Position numbers and translations under genes: made by a program
The notes under the pieces: model-generated
Told to the model about the DNA's origin: nothing
Databases searched by the model: none
The model's input: only the letters and a program-made list of their open reading frames with translations
Shown: piece by piece, positions 8,784 through 43,185 of the stretch
How positions within the stretch are numbered: the first letter of the stretch is position 1
Layout of the letters: every line of letters begins with the position of its first letter
Origin: Gammaproteobacteria bacterium
Lineage (GTDB): Bacteria > Pseudomonadota > Gammaproteobacteria > JAKEHO01
Direction: 5' to 3'
Assembly (NCBI GenBank): GCA_022614965.1
Contig: JAKEHO010000082.1
Coordinates: 12,069 to 76,068 of the forward strand
Length of the DNA: 64,000 nt

Positions 8784-9992
8784 CTAAAATAAGAGCTTGC
8801 GGATCACCCACCTCATCGTCGTGGTCTGTACAAACAAGGTAAACAGCACGACGCCGTAGGCAATCGACTGGATGGTAAACCAGAAATCAAGCTCGAGCGG
8901 CAAGGACAGGGCCAATGCCAAGGTGACCGCGCCGCGCACACCGCCCCAGGTCAGAACGACCTGATGGCTCATTGGGATCGCCTTCACCCCGGGGAGTCGG
9001 CTCATGGGACCCAAGAAACCAAAGACCAAGGCCGCCCGTGCAATCAGCACAGCGCAAATGCCGATTAACATCGCCAACCACTGGCTTTGAAACATGACCA
9101 CCGTGATGGTCACCCCTGCGAGCAAAAAGATCAGCGCATTGGCAACGTAGCCGGCGAATTCCCACAGATCTTCCACAAAGCGGCTTTCCCTCGATTCGCC
9201 ACTGCGCCGCGCGAGCTCACCCAGGACAAGCCCGGCGGCAAGAACTGCCATGACACCGGAAATCTGCAGCACATCCGCAATAAGATAGGCGAAATACGCA
9301 CACAGCACGGTCATTAGGCCCGCAATCACCGGCTGTCGAAACGCACCCATCAACGCGTAGGTCAGCGAACCGATAAGCGCACCGACGGCCAACCCGCCGA
9401 AAAAGATCAACAGGAACTCGCCGAGTGCCTTGTCCCAAGCCTTTGCTTCCCCAAACCCGAGGGCAAGCGTAACTAACAGACTAAACAAGACGATCGCCGT
9501 GGCATCATTGAACAAGCTCTCGCCTTCAAGAAGGATGTTGATCCGTTCGGTCGCTTTGATCTTCTTCAACAGTGACAGCACTGAGGCAGGGTCTGTCGCG
9601 GACAACAAGGCCCCTGTCAACAGTGCCGCAACCCATGGGAACCCTGACGGATGCGCGATTCCATAATAAACAATGACCGCTGTGATAGCGGCACCGAGTG
9701 CCATCAATGGCAACGACAACATTAGGATAATAAACAGATCCTTTAAAAGTGCCCTGAAATCGAGTCTGAAGGCCGCCTCGAAGATCAATACGGGCAGGAA
9801 GACGTAATAGATCAAGTCACGAAAATTCTCCCATCGCACTCCCGTATCGAAACCCGCACCGATAAGCACCTCTGAGCCGACAAACCCAATGAAGACAAGT
9901 GCCGCACTGAAGGGTATGCGTATTCGCTCTGCTAACGGCTCTACCAGTACCGCAAGGAGCAGCAGCACCATGAAAAATAAAACGGCTTGCAT
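8784..9992 (-). CDS. cation:proton antiporter (CPA1/NhaP-like)
   Basis: 402-aa polytopic membrane ORF with an LLSATDPASVL-type exchanger core motif. Confidence 0.8.
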   Translation of the reverse strand: MQAVLFFMVLLLLAVLVEPLAERIRIPFSAALVFIGFVGSEVLIGAGFDTGVRWENFRDLIYYVFLPVLIFEAAFRLDFRALLKDLFIILMLSLPLMALGAAITAVIVYYGIAHPSGFPWVAALLTGALLSATDPASVLSLLKKIKATERINILLEGESLFNDATAIVLFSLLVTLALGFGEAKAWDKALGEFLLIFFGGLAVGALIGSLTYALMGAFRQPVIAGLMTVLCAYFAYLIADVLQISGVMAVLAAGLVLGELARRSGESRESRFVEDLWEFAGYVANALIFLLAGVTITVVMFQSQWLAMLIGICAVLIARAALVFGFLGPMSRLPGVKAIPMSHQVVLTWGGVRGAVTLALALSLPLELDFWFTIQSIAYGVVLFTLFVQTTTMRWVIRKLLF

Positions 9993-10021
9993 TGATTCGA
10001 CTTTCGCTTCAGATCTAATCG

Positions 10022-10054
10022 AAAAAAATAGCCGGCCTGCAAATGCAGGCCGGC
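10022..10054 (-). terminator. rho-independent terminator after the DoxX gene
   Basis: Perfect GC-rich inverted repeat GCCGGCCTGCA/TGCAGGCCGGC (10031-10054), followed on the minus strand by a T7 run (A-run 10022-10028 on plus). Lies 5 nt after the CDS stop. Confidence 0.8.
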
Positions 10055-10058
10055 ATCC

Positions 10059-10526
10059 TTACACCGATCGGAAGTAACGGTTAACAATCAAATTGTCGAT
10101 GCTCGCCTTGCCGGGCCCACTCAGCAGCAGAGGGATCAGCATTATCAGAAAGATCAAGGGCAGCTTGTAGCCATTGTCGCAGACGTTATAGCCATTGCCT
10201 GCATGGACGCTTATCCAGGCCACCACGTCGAGGATAATGAGCGCCGCCGCGCTAAACCGTGTCGCCAATCCGATGACCAAGGCGATGCTGCCGATTAGCT
10301 CGGACCACGTTGCAAGCAACCAGTTGATGTCCACCGGTATCTGGTCAAAGGGGAACGGAAATTTGTCCTGGATCTGGGCAAACCAGTTTTCCCCACGGAG
10401 CTTTGTCACACCGGAGTCCCAGAACTCCCACGCCAGCAGCAATCTCAAACCAAGCGGCGACAAATAGTTTCCAAGCAAGTTCAGAAACTGGGTAAATTTG
10501 CACCCCAGAGAAACAAATATGTTCAT
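10059..10526 (-). CDS. DoxX family membrane protein
   Basis: 155-aa, about 4-TM ORF with a DoxX-like N-terminal LRLLLAWEFWDSGVTKL segment. Confidence 0.7.
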   Translation of the reverse strand: MNIFVSLGCKFTQFLNLLGNYLSPLGLRLLLAWEFWDSGVTKLRGENWFAQIQDKFPFPFDQIPVDINWLLATWSELIGSIALVIGLATRFSAAALIILDVVAWISVHAGNGYNVCDNGYKLPLIFLIMLIPLLLSGPGKASIDNLIVNRYFRSV

Positions 10527-10659
10527 AGCAGTCCCCTCCTCTTGACTTTAATTGTTCCTGAATTACTCGCCAGTGTGGTGGCGGGCGGATGATTCGCGTG
10601 ATTAATAGACGCTAAACCCCTTAGCAGGCTGCACCAGCGGCATTGTGGGGATCGTTACG

Positions 10660-12108
10660 CTATAGCGCTTTCGAGCGCAGCACCAACAGCTTCTCTATCT
10701 GCATGTCGCGCATCGTGTACGGGATCCCTCCGACACCCAGGCCGGATTGTTTAATGCCGGCGAATGGCATCCAATCCACCCGAAAGGCCGTGTGATCGTT
10801 GACCATGATAGCGGTACCGTCAAGCCGCGAATAAGCGTGCAAGGCGGTATCGAGATCACGGGTAAATACCGCTGCCTGGAACGCGTAGGGCAGGGCATTG
10901 GCTCTGGAAATCGCCTCATCGATGTCGGCATACGGATAGACACAGACGACCGGCCCGAAGATCTCGAGCACACTTACCTTCGCATCGTCCGGCGGGTCAT
11001 ACAACACCGTTGGCGCGTAGCAAGAACTCGAGAGCTTCTCGCCACCACAGAGCACCCTGGCTCCGGACTCTTCGGCCTCTCTCACCCACTGATGCACACG
11101 GTCGACCTCGCCATGACGGATAAGCGGCCCGAGCTGCGTGTCCGGAAGCGTCGGGTCCCCCACCTTGAGTGCTTTTGCGATGCTTGCAAGGGCCTGTGCG
11201 ACCTCCATGGCAATGGATTGATGTGCAAAGACCCGCTGTACGGAAACGCATACCTGGCCTGCATGATAGAAGCCGCCCTTCGCCAGCAACGGTAGCGTCT
11301 CTTCTTGGTCGGCGTCCTCCGCCATGATCACCGGCGCGGCCCCACCATGCTCCAATGCGCATCGCGTACCCGGTGCAAGCTTCGAACGCAGCATCCAACC
11401 AACCTTGCTACTTCCAATGTAACTAAAGAAGGCGACGCGTTGATCCGTTGCTAACTTCGTCGCGACCTTGAGGTCCTCGACGATGAGCGACTGGCACCAT
11501 TCCTCCGGTAACCCCGCCTCGCGCAGGATCCCGACAAAGCGATAGCAGGATAACGGCGTATCTTCGGCGGGTTTGACGATGACGGGACAGCCCGTTGCCA
11601 CCGCCGGACCTACCTGATGCACAATGAGATTCAATGGATGATTAAATGCGCTGATGGCCACGACGACGCCAATGGGTTCCTTGCGAGTGAAGGCCATGCG
11701 GTGGGCGGACGCGGCGTTGAGATCCATGGGTATTTCTTTCCCCGCGTCAGTTCGCATTACTTGAATACAGACATTCACCCCGTCGATGGCGCGCGCCACC
11801 TCGACTCTCGAATCAATGAGGGGTTTACCCCCTTCTCGAGCCGCCTCGACCGCAAGTTCCTCGGCATGATCGGCCATTAAGGCCGCGGTTTTTTTCAGAA
11901 TGTCCAGCCGCTCCCCGGTGCTTAACCAACGATCACGATCCGAGAAGAGCTCACTCGCGCTCTGCAATGCCTTATCCGCCGCATCCCAATCTGCCGTGTC
12001 TACCGTCGCGATAAGGGATCCGTCATAGGGTGCGGAAACCTTGAGCACACCACCGGTGGTCTTTGCGCCGGGAATCATCATCGGAAAATGGGGGGGTTTG
12101 ATATCCAT
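10660..12108 (-). CDS. NAD(P)-dependent aldehyde dehydrogenase
   Basis: ALDH glutamate motif LEHGGAAP and catalytic-Cys region FYHAGQVCVSVQR. Start placed at ATG 12108 (MDIKPP...) rather than the upstream TTG of the 498-aa track ORF. Confidence 0.88.
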   Translation of the reverse strand: MDIKPPHFPMMIPGAKTTGGVLKVSAPYDGSLIATVDTADWDAADKALQSASELFSDRDRWLSTGERLDILKKTAALMADHAEELAVEAAREGGKPLIDSRVEVARAIDGVNVCIQVMRTDAGKEIPMDLNAASAHRMAFTRKEPIGVVVAISAFNHPLNLIVHQVGPAVATGCPVIVKPAEDTPLSCYRFVGILREAGLPEEWCQSLIVEDLKVATKLATDQRVAFFSYIGSSKVGWMLRSKLAPGTRCALEHGGAAPVIMAEDADQEETLPLLAKGGFYHAGQVCVSVQRVFAHQSIAMEVAQALASIAKALKVGDPTLPDTQLGPLIRHGEVDRVHQWVREAEESGARVLCGGEKLSSSCYAPTVLYDPPDDAKVSVLEIFGPVVCVYPYADIDEAISRANALPYAFQAAVFTRDLDTALHAYSRLDGTAIMVNDHTAFRVDWMPFAGIKQSGLGVGGIPYTMRDMQIEKLLVLRSKAL

Positions 12109-12130
12109 TATCTTTCTTTCACGAGCTTTT

Positions 12131-12500
12131 CTATATCGGACAAACGAGCGCCCCAAGCTGCGTGAGCCTCACCTTTTGGCGCAACTCTACCGGGCAGTCA
12201 ATAACGAGCACCGTGTCGTCTTGAACGGCTTGTGTTAAAGCTGGCAACAACTCCTTAGGCGATTCCAGGTGATTGCATCCGATAACCTTTGGCTCCGAAA
12301 CTCTCCGCGAACTTGACGAAATCCGGCTTGTTGAAGCGGACATCTGAATCATTTCGTGGTGAATCATTGGGCCCGGCGGAACGGACAAACCGCAACGTTG
12401 ATCCCCTCAGTTTATTGGTATTCCTATCCGACTGGGTGATGGGTCCGCCGCTGCGGGACGGCCCATGGTTACAAGGTCAATTGCGCGCCGCCTGAGGACA
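12131..12500 (-). pseudogene. frameshifted 3' remnant of an acetolactate-synthase-like ThDP-dependent enzyme
   Basis: Minus-strand fragments fall in three frames: DLVTMGRPAAADPSP, then FNKPDFVKFAESFGAKGYR, then LESPKELLPALTQAVQDDTVLVIDCPVELRQKVRLTQLG. The last two match the C-terminal tail pattern of AlsS/BudB-type enzymes (DF.K.AESFGAKG..V...EL...L......P.VID.PVDY). No N-terminal two-thirds is present. Confidence 0.55.
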
Positions 12501-12505
12501 GCCCC

Positions 12506-12820
12506 TCAGGCAACCCGCACACCGAGCAGGACATCTTTTGCGCGTAACTCCCGCATGGACTCGAGCCCGCTATCGATGAGCAGCTCCGGCTTTCGATGTT
12601 GGAGTTCTTGGGCTATCGTGTCAAGCAATTCCCGGCCGGGCCATCCAGTCATCTCCTGAATCAGCTCGAGCAGCCGGGCCGCCGCTAAATTGAGCTCGAT
12701 ATATGCCACCTTGTCGCGCCGATCACGGAAGAGCAGCGAATGCGTCGCCTCCTTAGGAGGCTTTCGCGGTTTGTAGTTTGGGCTAATTCGATGGACGGAA
12801 AACGATACTTGAGGAGCCAT
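12506..12820 (-). pseudogene. C-terminal fragment of a DUF2063 (HvfC/BufC-like) RiPP maturation partner
   Basis: The 104-aa ORF matches only the C-terminal half of DUF2063 proteins (..LLFRDRRDKVAYIELNLAAARLLELIQE..GRELLDTIAQEL..). It is in the same frame as the DUF692 fragment upstream, 32 codons after that fragment's TAA. Confidence 0.6.
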
Positions 12821-12916
12821 GCCAGCGGGCTCAGCACTGGGACGCCGGCCAGACAGTGCTCTGGATCCCGAATATGGCGCGTAAATGCGTACTGGATTTA
12901 GGTAAATGTCGCGCGC

Positions 12917-13321
12917 TTATCCATGCTGTTTGATCCGCTCTGCTACGTAATGCGCCGCGTCCTCGGTGAAGGGGATAGGCAATAGATCATAGAGGTGGCC
13001 ATCGTCTGCACAGTAGCTTAAGTGCTCCCTGTAGCAGCGAACAGTGTACTCCACCAGGAATTGCTTGATGCGCTGAAGGTACGCTTCATCCAGCGGCGCT
13101 GGAGCGCCGAGATTCAACGACAGGCCGTGGCATATTAAGGGCCTGCGTTCGGTGATGGCCCGGAATCGACGTCCAAGGCGGCTACCCACATCGATCCTGA
13201 TCTCGGGCGCCACCTCCATAAAACTCACCGGCGAAGGCGCCTCCTCAGCAAGCGGGCCCAATAGGGCCCGCTTGCTGACCGAGATCTGCGCCCGGCACGG
13301 GGTATCGACGCTGCTCCACAA
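12917..13321 (-). pseudogene. N-terminal fragment of a DUF692 multinuclear non-heme iron oxidase (HvfB/BufB-like)
   Basis: FMEVAPE...PLICHGLSLNLGAPAPLDEAYL...YREHLSYCADDGHLYDLLPIPFTEDAAHYVAERIKQ matches the first half of DUF692. It ends at TAA 12917-12919, and similarity continues about 20 codons past the stop (ARDIYLNPVRIYAPYS). TTG start, no SD. Confidence 0.65.
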
Positions 13322-13333
13322 TAAACCGAAAAT

Positions 13334-13690
13334 TTACTCGGAAGACAGGCTTGCGCCGCACTTCCCTTCGCCGCACTTCCCCTCGCCCTTCATCTCGCCG
13401 CCACTACGACCCTCGGACTGCTCGTCACCCTCGGCCTTCTTGCCTTCACCGCACTTCCCCTCGCCGCATTTGCCTTCGTGAGCCTTCCTCTTCTCACCGC
13501 ACTTCCCTTCGCCACACTTTCCTTCTGCACCCTTCTCACCGCCATGCTCCGCTACCATATAGCCATTGGAGAATTGCGTCATGCTAAACGGATTCTCCGC
13601 GGCATTCGCGAGCGGTGCCGCTGCCAGCGATACAGCAAACGTGGTACCGATCGCCGCGGCGATGGGCTTTAACGTTGATCTCCTCGACAT
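13334..13690 (-). CDS. EGKCG-repeat RiPP metallophore precursor (HvfA/oxazolin-type, bufferin-like), with Sec signal peptide
   Basis: AGGAGG lies 9 nt upstream of the ATG. Signal peptide ...AVSLAAAPLANA|AE. The core has six Cys, each within EGKCG and arranged as three EGKCGEGKCG doublets. Directly upstream of the DUF692 fragment. Confidence 0.8.
   Translation of the reverse strand: MSRRSTLKPIAAAIGTTFAVSLAAAPLANAAENPFSMTQFSNGYMVAEHGGEKGAEGKCGEGKCGEKRKAHEGKCGEGKCGEGKKAEGDEQSEGRSGGEMKGEGKCGEGKCGASLSSE
13358..13528 (-). repeat. six copies of a 15-nt coding unit (GGCGAAGGGAAGTGC-like, encoding GEGKC) in three tandem pairs
   Basis: Units at 13358-13372, 13373-13387, 13451-13465, 13466-13480, 13499-13513 and 13514-13528 on the plus strand (GCACTTCCC[T/C]TCGCC and variants). 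Confidence 0.9.
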
Positions 13691-13924
13691 AAGCCTATCC
13701 CTCCTAAGAGTAAGTCAAAAAAATACGCCCAGATCTCGGCGAGGTGGTTGCACGAAACACTTTCCACAACACTGCCTTTGTTGGGTCACCGTAAGTGCCT
13801 GGCTCCCGCTGAGGCACCCGCAACAACTGTGCTCGCTAGAGTCGAAACCACAAGCTCTTTCTATTGACCTGCCATCCCGATGCAAGGTTCCCTCCTAGAG
13901 CAGTCAATTCCCTACAACACGTCC

Positions 13925-15418
13925 TTAGACTGAGTCTTTCGAGCGCATCTGCGGAAACAAAAGCACGTCACGGATCGACGGTGAATCGGTCAGCACCATT
14001 ACCAGCCGATCAATGCCGATTCCTTCGCCTGCGGCAGGCGGCATACCATACTCCAACGCACAGATATAATCCTCATCAAACTCCATCGCCGATTCATCAC
14101 CCGCCTCCCTCTCCTTTAGCTGTTGTCGGAACCGGTCCGCCTGATCATCCGGATCATTCAGCTCAGAGAAACCATTCACAAGCTCCCGGCCGAAGACGAA
14201 ACACTCGAAGCGATCAGCCACAAAACCATCCCGCTCGCTGCGCCTCGCCAGTGGCGAGACCTCCGTGGGAAACGCCGTAATAAACGTTGGTTCCTTAATA
14301 TGTGCTTCCACCGTCTGCTCGAAGATCTCGAGCTGGATCTTGCCGAGGCCCCAGTGATCTTCAAGGGGTATCTCAAGCCGTTTTGCCGCTGCACGCGCGC
14401 GATCCAGGGATTCCAGATCAGATGCGGCCAGAGTAGGATTGAACTTCAGGATCGACTCTTTAACGGTCATGCGGGCAAAGCGCTCGCTGAGATCAACCTG
14501 CTCACCTTGATAGCTCAACGTTGTGCTCCCCAAGACCTCCTTCACGAGGGAGCGCAACATCTCTTCAGTCAGATCCATCAGATCATGGTAATCGGCATAG
14601 GCCTGATAGAGCTCCAACATTGTAAATTCCGGATTGTGCCGAGTTGACAAACCCTCGTTCCGGAAACTGCGATTGATCTCGAAGATCTTTTCCATACCGC
14701 CCACGACGAGACGTTTTAAATAGAGTTCCGGAGCGATTCGGAGAAACAGCTGCATATCCAACTTGTTGTGGTAGGTAATAAATGGACGGGCCGCCGCACC
14801 ACCGGGAATGGGATGCATCATCGGTGTTTCCACCTCAACGAAGTCTTGCTCTGTGAGGAATCGTCTGAGAAAGACGATGAGGGCATGACGCACGCGAAAT
14901 CTCTCGCGCGTTTCTTCGTTCATCACCAGATCAAGGTAGCGCTGGCGGTACCGCGTCTCTTGGTCCGTCAGGCCATGGAACTTCTCTGGAAAAGGCCGTA
15001 AGGCTTTTGTCAATAGACGGATCTCCCTTACCATGACGGAAAGCTCACCGGTCTTGGTCTTAAAGAGGCGGCCTTCCGCCCCGACGATGTCGCCCAGGTC
15101 CCAATGTTTGAAGTTCGCAAAGCGGCCATTTGGCAACTGATCCTGCTTCAGGTAGAGCTGGATTTGACCTGACATGTCCTGGATGTGGGCAAACGCACTC
15201 TTTCCCATGATCCGGCACGTCATCATACGACCGGCAACCTTTACGTGAACTGGCTCTGCCTCAAGCTCCGAGCTGCTTTTCCCTCCAAAGCGGCTATGCA
15301 GCGGCAGAGCCAATGCATCTCGCTTGAAATCATTGGGATAAGCCACGCCCGCTTTTCGCAAAGCAGCAAGCTTGGCTCGGCGTTGAGCTATCTGGTCCTT
15401 TGACTCGTGCTCAGTCAT
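13925..15418 (-). CDS. lysS: lysine--tRNA ligase (class II)
   Basis: 497 aa with FRNEGLSTRHNPEFTMLELY (motif 2 region) and the C-terminal GIGIDRLVM motif. Confidence 0.95.
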   Translation of the reverse strand: MTEHESKDQIAQRRAKLAALRKAGVAYPNDFKRDALALPLHSRFGGKSSSELEAEPVHVKVAGRMMTCRIMGKSAFAHIQDMSGQIQLYLKQDQLPNGRFANFKHWDLGDIVGAEGRLFKTKTGELSVMVREIRLLTKALRPFPEKFHGLTDQETRYRQRYLDLVMNEETRERFRVRHALIVFLRRFLTEQDFVEVETPMMHPIPGGAAARPFITYHNKLDMQLFLRIAPELYLKRLVVGGMEKIFEINRSFRNEGLSTRHNPEFTMLELYQAYADYHDLMDLTEEMLRSLVKEVLGSTTLSYQGEQVDLSERFARMTVKESILKFNPTLAASDLESLDRARAAAKRLEIPLEDHWGLGKIQLEIFEQTVEAHIKEPTFITAFPTEVSPLARRSERDGFVADRFECFVFGRELVNGFSELNDPDDQADRFRQQLKEREAGDESAMEFDEDYICALEYGMPPAAGEGIGIDRLVMVLTDSPSIRDVLLFPQMRSKDSV

Positions 15419-15508: not shown

Positions 15509-16616
15509 CTATACTCCCTCCTTCAAGCTAGCCTCCATGAATCGATCGAGATCTCCATCAAGCACGGCTTGAACATTCCCAGTCTCAACGCCTGTTCTTA
15601 GATCTTTGATACGGGACTGATCCAATACATAGGATCGGATCTGACTACCCCATCCGATATCCGCCTTTGATTCTTCCAATGCTTGTCTCTCCGCATTGCG
15701 TTTCTGCATCTCAATCTCATAGAGTTTTGCCTTTAGCTGTTTCATCGCGTGGGATCGATTCTTGTGCTGTGAGCGGTCACTCTGACATTGCACTACCGCA
15801 TTTGTAGGTAAATGAGTGATACGCACCGCGGAGTCGGTCCTATTTACATGTTGACCGCCCGCACCACTCGCACGGTAGGTATCAATTCGTAGATCGGCAG
15901 GATTGATCTCGATCTCGATATCCTCATCCACTTCAGGTGATACAAATACGGATGCAAATGAAGTATGGCGACGATTGCCTGAATCGAACGGCGATTTACG
16001 CACCAAGCGATGAACCCCAGTCTCAGTACGCAACCAGCCATACGCATAGTCACCGTCCACTTTGACCGTGGCGCTTTTGATCCCAGCCACTTCACCCGGT
16101 GAGACCTCCATGAGCTCCGCATCAAAATCACGCCGTTCCGCCCAGCGCAAGTACATTCGGAGCAGCATATTGGCCCAGTCCTGGGCCTCCGTGCCACCTG
16201 AACCCGCTTGAATCTCGAGGAAGGCGTTCCTCGCATCCATCTCACCGGAGAACATGCGGCGGAATTCAAGCTCGTGAAGCCACTCATCTAATTTTTCGAG
16301 GTCTTGCCGGACCGCCTCCGCCGCGTCTGCATCGTTCTCTTCCTTCGCCAGCTCAAGCAGTCCCATGGCCTCCGCAAGACCGCTTCGCAGACGGTCGACA
16401 GATTTGATCGCATCCTGCAAGGAGGCGCGTTCTTTGCCAAGCTTCTGCGCCTGTTCCGGGTTCTTCCAGATGGCAGGGTCTTCCAACGCGCGATTGACCT
16501 CAGTCAACCGCTGCCGCTTTTCATCATAGTCAAAGATACCCCCTGAGCGCCGTGAAGCGGCCCTGCATTGCCTTCAGGTGTGCAAAGATTGTATTGAGTT
16601 CGACGGTGTTTGACAT
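15509..16616 (-). CDS. prfB: peptide chain release factor 2 (requires programmed +1 frameshift)
   Basis: Frame 0 from ATG 16616 gives [28 protein letters not shown] then TGA. The +1 frame continues [19 protein letters not shown]... through SPF and GGQ ([10 protein letters not shown]) to 15509. Confidence 0.93.
16529..16544 (-). promoter_or_regulatory. prfB: prfB +1 frameshift site with internal SD-like element
   Basis: The minus strand reads AGGGGG TAT CTT TGA C, identical in form to the E. coli autoregulatory site. Confidence 0.88.
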
Positions 16617-36757: not shown

Positions 36758-39289
36758 ATGAAACGGACATTCTGGCAGCGTGACTGGTTTGCCGGTCTGG
36801 CTATCTCGATTGTTTTCCTGTTCATCGCCAACACCGGTTTCATCCGAAGCCTCGAACGTACGGCATATGACCTTGGCATTCGAGCGTCCTCGCATGATCC
36901 AGGGGACAAAGTCGCCATCATCGCAATCGATGATGAAAGCGTCGCCAATATTGGGCGATGGCCGTGGTCCCGTGATGTACTCGCCAAGATGATCGATGAG
37001 CTCGCAGGCAGCGGCGCAAAAGTGATTGGCAACACGGTGTTTATGTCTGAGCCGCAGATCGATCCTGGGCTTACCTACATTAATCAACTGATCGATTTTT
37101 ATACATCGTCCGGCCTCGCAAACGAACCGATTGAGCAGCTCGGGGAGATGGGAACCCTGTTGAACGATGCCCAAAGCGCACTGAACACAGACAAAAAACT
37201 CGCTGTTAGTATGAGAGAGGCGGGCGACGTCATCATGGCGATGCAATTCGTGCTCGGCCAACCACTCGGTAATCCCGACAAGGAGCTACCAGAGTTTGTC
37301 ACAAAATATGCGCTTCGGAACATCAGCTCCGGAAGCGGTGTCGGGCCGCGACCTGCATTAGCCGCCACCCCGCCTATCCAAGAACTCGGTAATGAAGCGA
37401 TCGGTATTGGCCATATCACCTTTCCTCTCGACTTTGATGGAGGTGTGCGCACGGAATCACTGGTGCTCGACTACTACGACCGTTTTTTCCCCTCCTTTTC
37501 ACTGTTGCTTGCGGCACAGAGTCTCAATCTAGGAATTGATGACATTCAGGTAACGCTCGGAGAGGGTATCAAACTCGGAAAGCTCAGTATCAAGACCGAT
37601 CCTTACTTGCAAATGAGACCCTTTTTCTACACCGATCGCGGGGATAAACCGGCGTTTCATGTGGATTCCTTTTTCGACGTGTACACCGACAAGATCCCGG
37701 CTGAGAAGTACCGGGATAAGATCGTGCTCATCGGCGCGACGGCCTTTGGCCTGGGTTCTCCGCAACTAACCCCTGTTAATTCTGCTATGGAGCCGGTTGT
37801 CACACTGGCCCACACCATCGCCAGCATCCTAAATGAAGATTTCTTCATCATCCCGGACTGGGGAGGGTTGGCGCGGATGGGGGCCTTCCTGGTGATTGCC
37901 TTGTATCTCATGTTCTTATTGCCAAGCCTCCGCGCAGGGATGGCAGCCGGGATCACCGCGGTGCTGCTCATCGCTCTTGTGCTCGGCGAGACCACATTTA
38001 TGGTTCGCGACGCCATGTGGTTAGAGCTGATGTGGCCTGCTAGTTTACTCTTCTTCGGGTATCTGCTGCTGACCACCAAACGCTATCTTGTCACGGAAAA
38101 GGGCAAGCTCCGCTCCGAGGCTGAATCGGCCGAGAGTAACCGGATGCTCGGCCTTGCCTTCCAGCAACAGGGCCAGCTGGATATGGCCTTTGAAAAATTC
38201 CGTAAATGTCCCCTTGACGACTCGATCATGGACCCACTGTACAACTTGGCGCTGGACTACGAGCGAAAGCGCCAGTTCAGCAAGGCCAACGCGACGTACA
38301 ACTACATGTCCCAATACGACCCCAATTTCCGAGACGTCAAGGAGCGAAGCCCTCGAGCAAAGGCGATGGAGGAGACCATCATGCTCGGCGGGCCGGGCTC
38401 CGGCCCAGCGGCTGGTACCCTGGTGCTGGATGTCGCCGGCGGCGTCGAAAAGCCCATGCTCGGCCGCTATCAAATCGAAAGGGAGCTCGGTAAAGGGGCC
38501 ATGGGGACCGTCTACCAGGGCAGGGACCCGAAGATCAACCGCGTCGTGGCGATTAAGACCCTGCCGCTCTCCCAGGAGTTTGAGGAAAATGAATTGGAGG
38601 CGGTGAAAACGCGTTTCTTCCGCGAGGCGGAGACGGCGGGTCGCCTGACGCATCCCCACATCGTGACGATTTACGATGCCGGCGAGGAGCACGATCTGGC
38701 CTATATTGCCATGGAGTTCCTCAAGGGCGAGGATTTGAGGCCATACACTAGTCGAGACAATCTGCTCCCCTTACGCACGGTCATCGATATCACCATCCAA
38801 GCGGCAGACGCACTGCATTACGCGCACTCGCAGAACGTGGTGCACCGTGATATAAAACCGGGCAACGTCATGTGGGAACGCGACACGGGAAACATCAAGC
38901 TAACGGATTTCGGCATCGCCCGGATTACCGACGCCAGCAAGACAAAGACCGGAATGGTCTTTGGCACCCCCTCCTACATGTCACCCGAGCAGCTTTCCGG
39001 CCAAAAGGTCGACGGGCGTTCAGATCTATTTTCGCTCGGCGTGATGCTATACCAGCTGATCTGTGGTTCGTTGCCATTTCAAGGTGATTCCATGGCGACA
39101 CTCATGTATAAGATCACGAATGAGCCGCATCCGAACATCGTGAACCGGCGACCCGAACTGGGCCAAGAAGCACCGCTCTTGGTACCCATTATCAATAAGG
39201 CGTTACAAAAGGCAGTGGAAGCACGCTACCAAACCGGTGGTGAACTGGCGAGGCACATGCGGACCTGCCTGCAGTCACTCACAAAGTGA
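36758..39289 (+). CDS. CHASE2 sensor domain-containing Hanks-type Ser/Thr protein kinase (CHASE2 - TM - TPR - kinase)
   Basis: N-terminal TM plus CHASE2 (IIAIDDESVANIGRWPWSRD), a TM cluster around aa 355-445, a TPR-like segment, and a C-terminal kinase (GAMGTVY..VAIK, HRDIKPGN, DFGIAR, GTPSYMSPEQ). Confidence 0.88.
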   Translation: MKRTFWQRDWFAGLAISIVFLFIANTGFIRSLERTAYDLGIRASSHDPGDKVAIIAIDDESVANIGRWPWSRDVLAKMIDELAGSGAKVIGNTVFMSEPQIDPGLTYINQLIDFYTSSGLANEPIEQLGEMGTLLNDAQSALNTDKKLAVSMREAGDVIMAMQFVLGQPLGNPDKELPEFVTKYALRNISSGSGVGPRPALAATPPIQELGNEAIGIGHITFPLDFDGGVRTESLVLDYYDRFFPSFSLLLAAQSLNLGIDDIQVTLGEGIKLGKLSIKTDPYLQMRPFFYTDRGDKPAFHVDSFFDVYTDKIPAEKYRDKIVLIGATAFGLGSPQLTPVNSAMEPVVTLAHTIASILNEDFFIIPDWGGLARMGAFLVIALYLMFLLPSLRAGMAAGITAVLLIALVLGETTFMVRDAMWLELMWPASLLFFGYLLLTTKRYLVTEKGKLRSEAESAESNRMLGLAFQQQGQLDMAFEKFRKCPLDDSIMDPLYNLALDYERKRQFSKANATYNYMSQYDPNFRDVKERSPRAKAMEETIMLGGPGSGPAAGTLVLDVAGGVEKPMLGRYQIERELGKGAMGTVYQGRDPKINRVVAIKTLPLSQEFEENELEAVKTRFFREAETAGRLTHPHIVTIYDAGEEHDLAYIAMEFLKGEDLRPYTSRDNLLPLRTVIDITIQAADALHYAHSQNVVHRDIKPGNVMWERDTGNIKLTDFGIARITDASKTKTGMVFGTPSYMSPEQLSGQKVDGRSDLFSLGVMLYQLICGSLPFQGDSMATLMYKITNEPHPNIVNRRPELGQEAPLLVPIINKALQKAVEARYQTGGELARHMRTCLQSLTK

Positions 39290-39295
39290 TTGGCT

Positions 39296-40120
39296 ATGGA
39301 CCTGACTAGCAAGCTTGAAATCGCGAACATCTCTCATGTCGGCAAGAAACGCCGGCATAACGAGGACAGCACGGTGAGCGACCCGAGTCTCGGACTGCTT
39401 GTGCTCGCAGATGGCATGGGGGGATATAGAGCGGGCGAGGTGGCAAGCAGCATTGCCGTGACGTCGATCATGAATGCCGTCAAAGGCCAGGTTGGAAATC
39501 TAAGACCCAATCGGCGGAGTGGCCCGGCCGGTTCGCACCCGGAATCTCTGCTGATCAAAGACGCCATCAGCCAGGCAAACTGGAATATCTACAAGATCGC
39601 CCGGGACGAACCACAGTGCCAAGGCATGGGAACGACGGTGGTGGTCAGCCTCTTCTATAATGATGAGATTACGATTGCCCATGTGGGCGATTCGAGGCTC
39701 TACCGGCTGCGTGGGGGCAAACTCCAGCAACTCACGACTGACCACTCGCTAATTCAAGAGCTTATCGACCGGGGCATGTTTACGCCTGAGGAAGCCGAGG
39801 TGTCGATGCCTAAGAATCTGGTCACCCGGGCGCTCGGGGTCAGAGCGGACGTCCAGGTGGACATTCAGAAGGGTCATGTCAGCCCCGGGGACATCTACCT
39901 GCTGTGTTCGGACGGCCTCAATGATATGGTAACTGATGAAGAAATTCGCTTAACCCTAAGTAAATATAGTGCTAATCTTGTACAGGCGGCAGGGGAATTG
40001 GTACAGCAAGCAAACGAAAAAGGAGGCAATGACAACATCTCCGTGATACTGGCGCGCCCCCTGGACCACTTTCCAGCACCGAGCAGCTTGTATCAGAGGG
40101 TATTTGGGCTATTCAGTTGA
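39296..40120 (+). CDS. PP2C-family Ser/Thr phosphatase
   Basis: LADGMGG, GTTVV, LLCSDGL and GGNDNIS motifs. Starts 6 nt after the kinase stop. Confidence 0.88.
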   Translation: MDLTSKLEIANISHVGKKRRHNEDSTVSDPSLGLLVLADGMGGYRAGEVASSIAVTSIMNAVKGQVGNLRPNRRSGPAGSHPESLLIKDAISQANWNIYKIARDEPQCQGMGTTVVVSLFYNDEITIAHVGDSRLYRLRGGKLQQLTTDHSLIQELIDRGMFTPEEAEVSMPKNLVTRALGVRADVQVDIQKGHVSPGDIYLLCSDGLNDMVTDEEIRLTLSKYSANLVQAAGELVQQANEKGGNDNISVILARPLDHFPAPSSLYQRVFGLFS

Positions 40121-40142
40121 CGTCAGTCGATAGGACAGTTCT

Positions 40143-40865
40143 ATGGCGAAGCTTATTCTGAGCCTGAATGGTGTGGTTCAAGGGGAGTTCGCGCTCGAGA
40201 AGGAACGCACCACAGTTGGGCGACGTCCCGATAACGACATCCAAATTGATAATTTGGCAGTTAGCGGAAAACACGCGCTGATCATTACGATCCTAGACGA
40301 CTCCTTCCTTGAAGACCTTGGCAGCACGAATGGCACCTATGTCAATGGGAAACTGATAAAGAAGCAGGCGCTGCGAAACGGTGACATACTCACCATTGGC
40401 AAGCATGAGCTTAAATATATAAACGAACACGCAACGGCAGATGACGAGCAGTTCGAAAAGACTCTGATCATTCGGCCGAGCTCGGTGTCGAGCGCTATTG
40501 CCGCCGCTCAAGCCGCTAAACAGGCTGGTGTGGCTCCAGCACCATCGACACCACCAGAATCAAAATCACAGCACAACGCTTCCATCATGCCGTTGGGATC
40601 GCTTACAGTCCTAAATGGCCCCATCGCCGGTAAGGAACTCGAACTCACCAAGGCGCTGATCACATTGGGCAAGCCAGGTGTGCAGGTGGCCGTTATCTCA
40701 CGTCGCCCACAAGGTTACTTCCTGACGCATATCGAAAGTGACGGTGATGGCCAGCGTTATCCCCTGATCAACGGTCAGCCGATTGGCCCCCGGGCCTATG
40801 CGTTGCGCAATAGCGACGTAATCGAATTGGCTGGGATCAAAATGGAATTCTCGCTAAACAAGTAG
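40143..40865 (+). CDS. FHA domain protein (canonical N-terminal FHA plus degenerate C-terminal FHA-like domain)
   Basis: N-terminal TVGRRPDNDIQIDNLAVSGKHALI...GSTNGTYVNG..GDILTIG, an Ala/Pro linker, and a second beta-rich domain lacking the Arg/Ser/His/Asn pThr-binding residues. Confidence 0.85.
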   Translation: MAKLILSLNGVVQGEFALEKERTTVGRRPDNDIQIDNLAVSGKHALIITILDDSFLEDLGSTNGTYVNGKLIKKQALRNGDILTIGKHELKYINEHATADDEQFEKTLIIRPSSVSSAIAAAQAAKQAGVAPAPSTPPESKSQHNASIMPLGSLTVLNGPIAGKELELTKALITLGKPGVQVAVISRRPQGYFLTHIESDGDGQRYPLINGQPIGPRAYALRNSDVIELAGIKMEFSLNK

Positions 40866-40935
40866 CAACAATTACATCGCCTCCGCACCAAAGCCAGCGA
40901 CCTGATCTCCTTACCGTCTTACTACACGAGACGGG

Positions 40936-43185
40936 CTAACCTTTGGTCGTGTAGGTAAACACGCCATTCCAGGCTACCTCAGGCGGATGTCTCCGAAAAT
41001 GGGCAACGCGTTTGATGTATAAGCTGTACAGGCCACGCTCAGGCGCTATCTTTTGTAAATTGAGAAACTGCAACTCGGCCCTATCCCAGTCCTCGGCACG
41101 GTAGTATTTCAAAGCCTGCGCATACAGGGTCATTTCATCGAGTGTGGTCTTGTCGATGTCGTTAATGAGCCCAATGGGCTCAAAGATCGCCACCGGCTCA
41201 TCCTTACCCATCACCCGCACCCGGTCGAGCTCGCGGTAGAAGTACTCCGGCACCGCCCCCTTGGTCGACGCGCTCACAATCAGCGGGACACCGTATTCTT
41301 TCGTGAGCCCTTCCAAGCGCGACCCCAAATTGACAGCATCTCCGATCACCGTATAGGCCATTCGAAACGCCGATCCCATGTTGCCTACGCGCATTACGCC
41401 CGTATTAATCCCGACCCCCACCCTGAGTGGAGGCCAGCCACGGGATCGGAATTCGTTCTGTAAGGAGTATGTGCGCTCAAGCAGCTCCATTCCAGCCATT
41501 AATGCGTGTCGCGCGTGCTCTGGATCTTCCACCGGAGCACCCCAGAATGCCATGATGGCATCGCCCATGTACTTATCAATAGTGCCCCGGTGTTTGTGGA
41601 TGATCTGGGTCATCGGCGTCAGAAACTCATTCATGAGCTGGGATAGATCCTTCGGAGTAAGGCCTTCAGAGAGGTTCGTAAAGTCGCGTACATCGGAAAA
41701 TAAAACGGTCAGTTCCCGGCTCTCCGCTTCGACTGAATAGGATGCCGGATCCCTACTCATCTCGTTGACCAGTTCCGGTGGTACGTATTGGCCAAAGAGC
41801 CCCATGATTTGGCGTTCCCTTCGTGTCTCCACGAAGAAACCATACGTCATATTGAGTAGGTACATCACGAGGATCATGATGACGCCCGAGGCGATCGGCA
41901 GGACCAGATTGGCATAGTGCCAAATTGCAAAATTGAAGCCGATGGAAATCACGGTCACGAGCAGTGTGACCAGCGTGGCCCAAAGAGGCGTCAATAGCGG
42001 CAGTATCAACGCCATCACGAGCCCGATGATGAGCAGGAGTATGAACTCCGCACCCAAGGTGTAGGCAGGCTTTTCTTTAATCGTCTGATCCAGTATCCCG
42101 GAGATGAGATTGGCATGGATCTCAACCCCAGGAAAGGCTTTCTGCACCGGGGTCGCCCTTAGATCCAGCAAGCCTGGAGCAGTGGCACCAACCAGTACGA
42201 CCGCGTTTTTTAGGATCTCGGGGGCTACACGCCCGTTCAGCACATCGGCTGCGGAGGCATAGGGAAAGCTTCCCTGCCTACCGCGATAGGGTACCAATGT
42301 CCGTATACGCCCATCGACGGGTACCAAGTGGTGACCGAGCTTTAGCCACTCAAGTCCTGGGTAGCGCTTATCCCATGGAAGGGTGTAGGCATACTGGGGC
42401 TCAACTTGGGCCACTCCAAGTATCACCCGCGCGACTTCAAGTGACAGGGAAGCGTAATAGGCGCCATCGTATTCGACGAGCATTGGCACCCGTCGGACGG
42501 TACCGTCCTCATCCACCCACGGATTGAAATGCCCCCCGCCGATGGCATTCAGTTGGAACTCGGCCAGGTTTCCTCCATAGCCTCCCGCCCTGATGAAGTC
42601 AATCTTTCTTCCTTTGAAACCGCCCTGCACAAATGTGGGGGACGGCAACGCACCACTCTTGGACACCTCTCCAGTGTCGTTCGGTTCGTTGTAATAGAAA
42701 CCCAGTATGACGGGCCGTCCCTTGATGCCCCCTGCAAACAGCCTGTCGTAATCGAGCTTTGGCCGAATACTTTCCAGCCGTGCGCGGTACTCCGGCAAAT
42801 CGCTAAATCTGTCGTTCGCAAGACCCTCGAGTACGTCTAGCCCTGAACTCCTGTCTGGCTCCGCGAAGACCAAGTCAAATGCCACAAGGGCGACGTGATA
42901 GTGATTAAAGAGCTGATCCAGGAAGCGCGCCATGCGGTCCCTGCTCCAGGGCCAGCGCCCTTCCTCGGCCAGACTCTTCTCATTGATGTCGACAATGACG
43001 ATACGGGGATCCTGTGAGTTAGGCATCGTAAATACGAGGCGCGCATCATAGGCGATGTTTTCCATGCGATCGATTAAGCGCCAGTGCAGCAGGCCGGACA
43101 CATGGAGGAGAAACATGACCACCACGAGGAGACCGATGATCACACGCACCAAGTGGCGCTTGAGGAGTTGCAGGAAGGTCTTCAT
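40936..43185 (-). CDS. CHASE2 sensor domain-containing class III adenylate/guanylate cyclase
   Basis: N-terminal TM plus CHASE2 (VIVDINEKSLAEEGRWPWSRD), a TM cluster, and a cyclase domain (LFSDVRDFT, KYMGDAIMAFWGAP, VIGDAVNLGSRLE). Confidence 0.9.
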   Translation of the reverse strand: MKTFLQLLKRHLVRVIIGLLVVVMFLLHVSGLLHWRLIDRMENIAYDARLVFTMPNSQDPRIVIVDINEKSLAEEGRWPWSRDRMARFLDQLFNHYHVALVAFDLVFAEPDRSSGLDVLEGLANDRFSDLPEYRARLESIRPKLDYDRLFAGGIKGRPVILGFYYNEPNDTGEVSKSGALPSPTFVQGGFKGRKIDFIRAGGYGGNLAEFQLNAIGGGHFNPWVDEDGTVRRVPMLVEYDGAYYASLSLEVARVILGVAQVEPQYAYTLPWDKRYPGLEWLKLGHHLVPVDGRIRTLVPYRGRQGSFPYASAADVLNGRVAPEILKNAVVLVGATAPGLLDLRATPVQKAFPGVEIHANLISGILDQTIKEKPAYTLGAEFILLLIIGLVMALILPLLTPLWATLVTLLVTVISIGFNFAIWHYANLVLPIASGVIMILVMYLLNMTYGFFVETRRERQIMGLFGQYVPPELVNEMSRDPASYSVEAESRELTVLFSDVRDFTNLSEGLTPKDLSQLMNEFLTPMTQIIHKHRGTIDKYMGDAIMAFWGAPVEDPEHARHALMAGMELLERTYSLQNEFRSRGWPPLRVGVGINTGVMRVGNMGSAFRMAYTVIGDAVNLGSRLEGLTKEYGVPLIVSASTKGAVPEYFYRELDRVRVMGKDEPVAIFEPIGLINDIDKTTLDEMTLYAQALKYYRAEDWDRAELQFLNLQKIAPERGLYSLYIKRVAHFRRHPPEVAWNGVFTYTTKG

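Follow-up and report, generated by a model that had tools for sequence, protein, structure and literature searches.

The 64-kb stretch of gammaproteobacterial DNA analysed here (hereafter, the window) carries on its minus strand hvfA, an intact gene for a secreted precursor of the HvfA family, whose members give rise to copper-binding ribosomally synthesized and post-translationally modified peptides (RiPPs) with cysteines placed in EGKCG repeats. In the lineage of the window, several independent lesions have destroyed the genes for its maturation enzymes, hvfB and hvfC. Both parts of this statement taken together, the family identity of the precursor and the decay of the maturases encoded beside it, are held with high confidence. 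The precursor gene, its parts, and its ribosome-binding site are located as follows:

13334..13690, minus strand: hvfA, an intact open reading frame (ORF) of 118 amino acids (aa) with an ATG start and a TAA stop
13601..13690, minus strand: predicted Sec signal peptide of HvfA, residues 1-30, cleaved after A-N-A (from inspection and from the conservation of the N-terminus in homologues)
13526..13600, minus strand: conserved N-terminal region of the exported peptide (AENPFSMTQFSNGYMVAEHGGEKGA), with an NPF motif in 117/120 homologues
13496..13525, minus strand: EGKCGEGKCG doublet 1, with Cys59 and Cys64
13448..13477, minus strand: EGKCGEGKCG doublet 2, with Cys75 and Cys80
13355..13384, minus strand: EGKCGEGKCG doublet 3, with Cys106 and Cys111
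13700..13705, minus strand: Shine-Dalgarno sequence AGGAGG, 9 nt before the ATG of hvfA and invariant in five lineages

The peptide reads MSRRSTLKPIAAAIGTTFAVSLAAAPLANA up to the predicted cleavage point and AENPFSMTQFSNGYMVAEHGGEKGAEGKCGEGKCGEKRKAHEGKCGEGKCGEGKKAEGDEQSEGRSGGEMKGEGKCGEGKCGASLSSE after it. The N-terminus holds R3, R4, and K8 in its n-region, followed by a hydrophobic core and by A-N-A at positions -3/-1, and, judged by inspection, it fits a Sec signal cleaved by signal peptidase I between ANA and AE. Its 'SRRSTLK' stretch resembles the S-R-R-x-F-L-K motif of Tat export, which was ruled out, with the RR pair present in just 3/120 homologues. Gly, Glu, and Lys abound in the 88 residues after the signal peptide. 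The conserved positions of the N-terminal exported region are kept in the window sequence, and this region is presumed to be recognised by HvfC, as drawn from the binding reported between HvfA and HvfC (PMC11252979). All six cysteines (6/6) lie in exact EGKCG units, which start at residues 56, 61, 72, 77, 103, and 108 and form three EGKCGEGKCG doublets (residues 56-65, 72-81, and 103-112). At the DNA level, the six 15-nt units are near-identical variants of GAR GGN AAR TGY GGY, and Tandem Repeats Finder reports a period of 15 at 13354-13387 and a period of 48 at 13434-13525. An earlier note on this DNA had described an intact 118-aa ORF with a strong Shine-Dalgarno sequence, a Sec signal peptide, and six cysteines in three doublets encoded by six 15-nt units; all of these features are seen, and the ORF is placed on the minus strand.

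That note had also read the ORF as an HvfA/oxazolin-type precursor and had proposed profile hidden Markov model searches, which support the assignment: HvfA passes the NCBIfam model NF050137 ('KCGExKCG_twice'; HvfA family oxazolone/thioamide-modified RiPP metallophore) with 45.8 bits against a cutoff of 19.5. The equivalog model for the Haemophilus influenzae type, NF050188, is not passed (31.7 bits against a cutoff of 95). By these scores, the window HvfA belongs to the family without being an equivalog of the H. influenzae protein. In a protein search, 6,231 homologues matched at E<=1e-3, the best of them outside its own population with E=9e-47. The EGKCG pattern is far beyond chance at the sequence level, because thousands of homologues match at that threshold. 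The adjacency to DUF692 genes, which the earlier note had made a point of its reading, is found as well: orthologues stand directly upstream of intact DUF692 genes, which encode the multinuclear non-haem iron oxidase (MNIO) HvfB, and of DUF2063 (HvfC) genes. A chance low-complexity ORF or a mis-called gene, rather than a RiPP precursor, could be suspected from the Pfam scan of the window HvfA, in which no model matches, and from the public records, which label it 'hypothetical protein' or 'low-complexity protein' (the entry with an identical sequence is 'MAG: hypothetical protein L0Z68_08465 [Gammaproteobacteria bacterium]'). Such a reading is extremely improbable; it is refuted by the match to a curated NCBIfam model, by thousands of homologues that conserve the signal peptide and the leader, by a position upstream of hvfB and hvfC that is conserved in many genomes, and by a ratio of non-synonymous to synonymous substitution rates (dN/dS) of 0.14.

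The 120 best of the 6,231 matches were used for the homologue statistics. Their median length is 111 aa, against 118 aa in the window HvfA; six EGKCG units are the modal number (46/120), and an NPF...GYMVA leader follows the signal peptide in 117/120. The KRKAH spacer is found again in homologues P0004, P0005, P0006, P0008, and P0025. The earlier note had suggested that the length, the spacer, and the leader may define a variant. This idea is not supported, because length, repeat number, leader, and KRKAH spacer all recur in homologues; in these respects, the window HvfA is a typical member of the family, and no new variant is indicated. The family is also known as Buf_EGKCG or the 'captophorin' Lys-Cys group, and on its sequence the ORF is a genuine hvfA precursor gene of the oxazolin type. 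It shows the EGKCG doublets, the signal peptide (by inspection), and the hvfB/hvfC gene neighbourhood of the family, the latter here as remnants, and its locus lacks a functional cognate maturase pair.

The lesions were mapped by aligning the window to L004, which belongs to the sister lineage (L004/L005/L006). The HvfA of this lineage is 79% identical to that of the window, with a DNA identity of about 76%. The sister operon runs lysS - hvfA - hvfB (286 aa) - hvfC (255 aa) - thiamine pyrophosphate (TPP) enzyme (544 aa) - aldehyde dehydrogenase (ALDH; 482 aa) - PF01645 GltS-like gene (507 aa) - DoxX - Na/H exchanger - argG. In the outgroups L007, L008, and L009, an intact hvfB comes right after hvfA and the lysS...argG synteny is kept; hvfC is intact in L007 and L009, and the L008 contig ends inside this gene. 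Across sister and outgroups, intact orthologues measure 255-286 aa (hvfB) and 255-273 aa (hvfC). The ancestral operon of the clade lay in the lysS...argG interval, in the order hvfA-hvfB-hvfC-(TPP enzyme-ALDH-GltS-like)-hvfX. In the window, hvfB and hvfC are represented by three remnants:

12917..13319, minus strand: hvfB remnant (MNIO/DUF692 pseudogene), with a frameshift and a 459-bp deletion
12863..12924, minus strand: 5' fragment of hvfC, with its native ATG at 12924 and a TAA nonsense codon at codon 9 (12898-12900), then a deletion
12506..12852, minus strand: 3' remnant of hvfC, with the HvfC_C/NGO1945_C domain only (PF22106 match) and a -1 frameshift at about 12796

The native frame of hvfB, which starts from a GTG at 13319, ends after 24 codons owing to a +1 frameshift at about 13265-13280, and an in-frame deletion of 459 bp, with its junction at about 12928, has removed codons 131-283. 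The 134-aa ORF that is left matches only positions 7-124 of the 264 of the HvfB model NF003818, with 154 bits against a cutoff of 360, and does not hold the full-length TIM barrel with all iron-site residues described by NF003818 and PF05114. The deleted half contains motifs that can be aligned to the H. somni MNIO 3BWW, including the equivalents of HvfB N175, D242, and H244, each of which is indispensable, as single substitutions abolish activity (bioRxiv 10.64898/2026.07.17.739211). The string 'RDIYLNPVRIY' after the stop of the hvfB remnant was examined as a continuation of HvfB and rejected; in the DNA alignment it is the retained overlap between the hvfB stop and the hvfC start, together with the opening ~21 codons of hvfC. 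The HvfC_N (DUF2063) domain was lost in a deletion of about 348 bp (about 116 codons), with its junction at about 12853-12862, and the remaining 104-aa ORF matches only positions 144-236 of the 237 of NF050145 (78.9 bits against a cutoff of 142). HvfC_N and HvfC_C are therefore not found in one frame, as they are in NF050145. Over the whole operon, four separate deletions and four small lesions took about half of the ancestral 7.5 kb.

The 104-aa ORF of the HvfC C-terminus (12506-12820, minus strand) has its own ATG and spans the entire PF22106 domain. In principle, it might serve by itself as a peptide-binding domain; a dN/dS of 0.33 and the change of 5/14 conserved positions point to a pseudogene.

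An assembly artefact behind the deletions was ruled out. The window sequence is 100% identical to the NCBI contig CCZKQX010000023.1, from a metagenome-assembled genome (MAG), and to the contigs of separate assemblies of SRR16971104 and SRR16971108; the NCBI MAG and the two independent Logan assemblies agree, and no repeats are involved. The decay is confined to the hvf operon, because its flanks are collinear with L004 (over about 20 kb, except within the operon) and other large ORFs of the window match their domains normally: the 20 scanned elsewhere are housekeeping and signalling genes with ordinary domain matches, most of them full-length.

The consequences for the peptide follow from what has been reported on H. 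influenzae. There, HvfB is an MNIO and HvfC its DUF2063 partner, HvfC binds HvfA, modification of HvfA needs both proteins, and cleavage of the HvfA signal peptide has been shown experimentally (PMC11252979). HvfB, a mixed-valent diiron enzyme in complex with HvfC, carries out a four-electron oxidation of each EGKCG cysteine. The oxazolin product was first assigned as an oxazolone/thioamide (PMC11252979) and later reassigned to a 5-thiooxazole, with a loss of 4 Da per Cys (PMC12668002; bioRxiv 10.64898/2026.06.05.730506). Of the chemistry described in the earlier note, the action of an MNIO with a DUF2063 partner and the mass shift of -4 Da per Cys thus stand, and the oxazolone/thioamide product does not. 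Modified peptides of the family are exported by Sec, bind Cu(I), and absorb near 302-305 nm. Judged from its genes, the window HvfA cannot be matured by enzymes encoded in cis, because the essential residues of HvfB are lost and modification needs both HvfB and HvfC. The earlier note had also singled out the locus as natural-product-like, a reading that leaves out of account that hvfB and hvfC are pseudogenes and that the biosynthetic locus is not a working one.

The hvfA gene itself has changed differently from the remnants next to it. Between the window and L004, dN/dS is 0.14 for hvfA, 0.25 for the hvfB remnant, and 0.33 for the hvfC remnant, and lies at 0.065-0.10 for hvfX, the ALDH gene, lysS, argG, and nhaP. 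When amino-acid differences were polarised by the outgroup consensus, window-lineage-specific and sister-specific changes stood at 7:6 in hvfA, 13:2 in the hvfB remnant, and 11:2 in the hvfC remnant (24:4 for both remnants together), and at 56:38 in the control genes, with Fisher tests giving p=0.012 for the remnants against the controls and p=0.049 for hvfA against the remnants. Among positions at least 90% conserved in the outgroups, excluding the frameshifted N-terminal stretch of HvfB, 1/50 is altered in HvfA and 11/64 in the two remnants (p=0.012); in the HvfB remnant these amount to 6 of about 50. Amino-acid change has thus accelerated in the remnants of hvfB and hvfC but not in hvfA. 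This suggests that hvfA has been under purifying selection since hvfB and hvfC died, which is proposed rather than proven, given the small counts and a short peptide of low complexity.

In the model tentatively preferred here, hvfA would still be expressed, exported, and held under purifying selection, and its product would be modified in trans by a second MNIO/PME1 pair encoded elsewhere in the genome. Maturation of the window HvfA by such a pair is a serious possibility, though one that falls somewhat short of an even chance. The loss of hvfB and hvfC in cis would be tolerated because of redundancy with the second pair, if present. Several MNIO clusters per genome are common, very few of the genomes with EGKCG precursors are devoid of MNIOs (67/2,583), and trans maturation between hvf/buf clusters has been raised as a possibility, as yet undemonstrated (PMC12452194). 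Several points weigh against this model. A search of the 64-kb window found no second HvfB or HvfC sequence, a result whose scope is the window only. The rate tests use small counts (7 to 13 changes) from a short, low-complexity peptide, with p values of only 0.01-0.06. The genome is a MAG, so an intact allele may co-exist in the population. In addition, a gene of 357 nt may escape damage by chance: with three small lesions per ~1 kb of remnant, the probability of no hit is about 0.3.

The last of these points is equally an argument for a young relic, in which the hvf function is being lost and hvfA is merely unhit so far, with no selected role for the peptide. The gene is short and abuts the essential lysS, about half of the operon has already gone through the deletions and small lesions described above, and modification requires two proteins that are both dead here. 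Genomes with EGKCG precursors and without any MNIO are rare (67/2,583; PMC12452194), as expected of transient orphans. Against such a relic stand the absence of excess lineage-specific replacements in hvfA (7:6) and the preservation of 49/50 conserved positions, where the remnants have lost 11/64. The six EGKCG units, the Shine-Dalgarno site, and the conserved upstream motif are likewise intact, and hvfX (dN/dS 0.065) and the ALDH gene (0.077) of the same operon are strongly constrained, so that this explanation is regarded as rather unlikely. Constraint on hvfA and hvfX during the decay of hvfB and hvfC would also be expected if the genome had no other MNIO/PME1 pair and the unmodified, exported HvfA were retained as a periplasmic Cu(I) binder with six thiolates, perhaps in concert with HvfX (DoxX). 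In vitro, H. influenzae HvfA takes up about 2-3 Cu(I) when unmodified and about 6-7 when modified (PMC11252979), and a minority of complete genomes do have EGKCG precursors and zero MNIO. Free periplasmic thiols are, however, prone to form disulfides, as unmodified HvfA was isolated about 8 Da light and regained its mass with dithiothreitol (PMC11252979), and there would be no obvious reason for the conservation of the N-terminal region, which is presumed to be recognised by HvfC. A maturase-independent function of this kind is considered unlikely. Partnered with DoxX, unmodified HvfA may buffer periplasmic Cu(I) through its cysteine thiolates, and the stricter claim that hvfA and hvfX were selectively kept after the loss of every HvfB/HvfC-type maturase, leaving a precursor that works without its defining modification, is judged less probable still.

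The region upstream of hvfA is preserved as well, and holds one further element:

13866..13891, minus strand: candidate promoter of the extracytoplasmic function (ECF) sigma type, GGAACC-N17-GTC, 201 nt upstream of hvfA, with -35/-10 letters invariant in five lineages

The pattern G(G/A)AAC-N15-19-GTC occurs upstream of hvfA in 29/56 loci and in 2/56 control regions, which suggests that hvf operons are under ECF control, with the motif as a putative promoter. The window retains this ECF-type motif despite its dead maturases. In L004, L007-L009, and 24 further loci, the region before hvfA contains a conserved form, G(G/A)AAC(T/C)TT-N14-15-GTC. No sigma-70 promoter was found when 9900-14100 was scanned, and the window gave no matches in tRNA and Rfam scans.

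The remainder of the operon, downstream of hvfC, consists of two intact genes, two traces of lost ones, and a terminator-like hairpin:

12131..12348, minus strand: remnant of the TPP-dependent acetolactate-synthase-like gene (544 aa in the sister), its last ~70 codons, frameshifted by a 10-nt indel
10660..12108, minus strand: intact aldehyde dehydrogenase gene inside the operon, 482 aa (PF00171), 82% identical to L004, dN/dS 0.077
10557..10648, minus strand: scar of a wholly deleted 507-aa PF01645 (Glu_synthase-like) gene, present in sister and outgroups
10059..10526, minus strand: hvfX, an intact DoxX-family gene of 155 aa (NF050144, 143.2 bits against a cutoff of 80; PF07681)
10031..10054, minus strand: intrinsic-terminator-like hairpin (10 bp, 9 GC) followed by a T-run, which closes the operon after hvfX

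The hvfX product is 84% identical to its sister orthologue, with a dN/dS of 0.065. To place these genes, hvf loci were surveyed in 80 species-representative genomes, all from species other than that of the window MAG. HvfC follows HvfB in 78/80, and a same-strand ORF with at least two EGKCG units is found in 65/80, directly upstream of hvfB in nearly all. A PF01645 gene (glutamate-synthase-domain-like, membrane-anchored) adjoins the DoxX gene hvfX in 9/80 loci, and recurring beside it are an aldehyde dehydrogenase (5/80) and a TPP enzyme (2/80). Loci with these accessory genes include L004, L009, L012, L045, L049, L053, L067, L072, L081, and L083, and their window counterpart spans 10557-12348. 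Within this gammaproteobacterial clade, the PF01645, ALDH, and TPP genes may belong to hvf clusters as accessory genes that have escaped recognition; the ALDH gene is their sole survivor in the window and is strongly constrained. In L040, L069, L072, and L087, two tandem EGKCG-precursor ORFs stand upstream of one hvfB, and a single maturase pair serving several precursors appears to be common in the clade.

The closest characterised system is the hvfABCX operon of nontypeable H. influenzae. Its HvfA shares the signal peptide (of Sec type there, by inspection here) and likewise has exactly three xEGKCGEGKCG doublets (AEGKCGEGKCG) with six target cysteines (bioRxiv 10.64898/2026.06.05.730506). 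The order of precursor, MNIO, DUF2063 partner, and DoxX is the same, and both precursors pass the HvfA-family NCBIfam model. Despite these similarities, H. influenzae HvfA holds two extra N-terminal cysteines (the C38/C43 disulfide) that the window HvfA lacks, the ancestral operon of the window clade has additional TPP enzyme, ALDH, and GltS-like genes between hvfC and hvfX, and hvfB and hvfC are pseudogene remnants in the window. EGKCG repeats are also shared with fontiphorin FonA from Fontimonas thermophila and other Lys-Cys/EGKCG 'captophorins' of Pseudomonadota, in which an MNIO-PME1 pair makes Cu-binding 5-thiooxazoles and DoxX often co-occurs (PMC12668002). Unlike the window peptide, which is known from its gene alone and has dead maturases, FonA has seven modification sites and functional, characterised maturases.

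The bufferins BufA1 (DUF2282) and BufA2 (Buf_6/12Cys), with BufB/BufC (PMC12452194), are also Sec-exported RiPP precursors, whose cysteines are converted to thiooxazoles by closely related MNIOs and DUF2063 partners, and which share the link to copper stress and the association with DoxX and ECF sigma factors. They differ in precursor fold and family and have no EGKCG repeats, and the HvfB remnant of the window scores 154 bits on the HvfB model, against 72 bits on the BufB model. Methanobactin (MbnA/MbnBC) follows the same principle, in which Cu(I)-binding heterocycles arise when an MNIO oxidises cysteines of a ribosomally made peptide. However, it carries a classical leader instead of a Sec signal, its partner MbnC is not a DUF2063 protein, and its modification is an oxazolone/thioamide. 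Its MNIO is distant, with MbnB at E=3e-9 compared with 3e-73 for H. somni 3BWW.

Two further observations were made elsewhere in the window. The prfB gene (15509-16600, minus strand) is split into two reading frames because of the classical programmed +1 frameshift site of release factor 2 (GGGGGTATCTTTGAC) at 16529-16535. A signalling cluster at 36758-43185 comprises a CHASE2-Ser/Thr protein kinase (843 aa), a PP2C phosphatase, and an FHA-domain protein, with a CHASE2-adenylate/guanylate cyclase (749 aa) on the opposite strand.

The hvfA gene of the window is unannotated in public records, yet it is a clear member of a recently characterised and very widespread family of copper-binding RiPP precursors. 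What is not routine about the locus is its evolution, as it represents a dated, natural knockout of a maturase pair in which the precursor and its DoxX partner have been preserved. Should the genome hold no further MNIO, the locus would point to an independent function of HvfX and the unmodified peptide. Should there be a second pair, the locus would instead exemplify loss driven by redundancy, as well as trans maturation between hvf/buf clusters.

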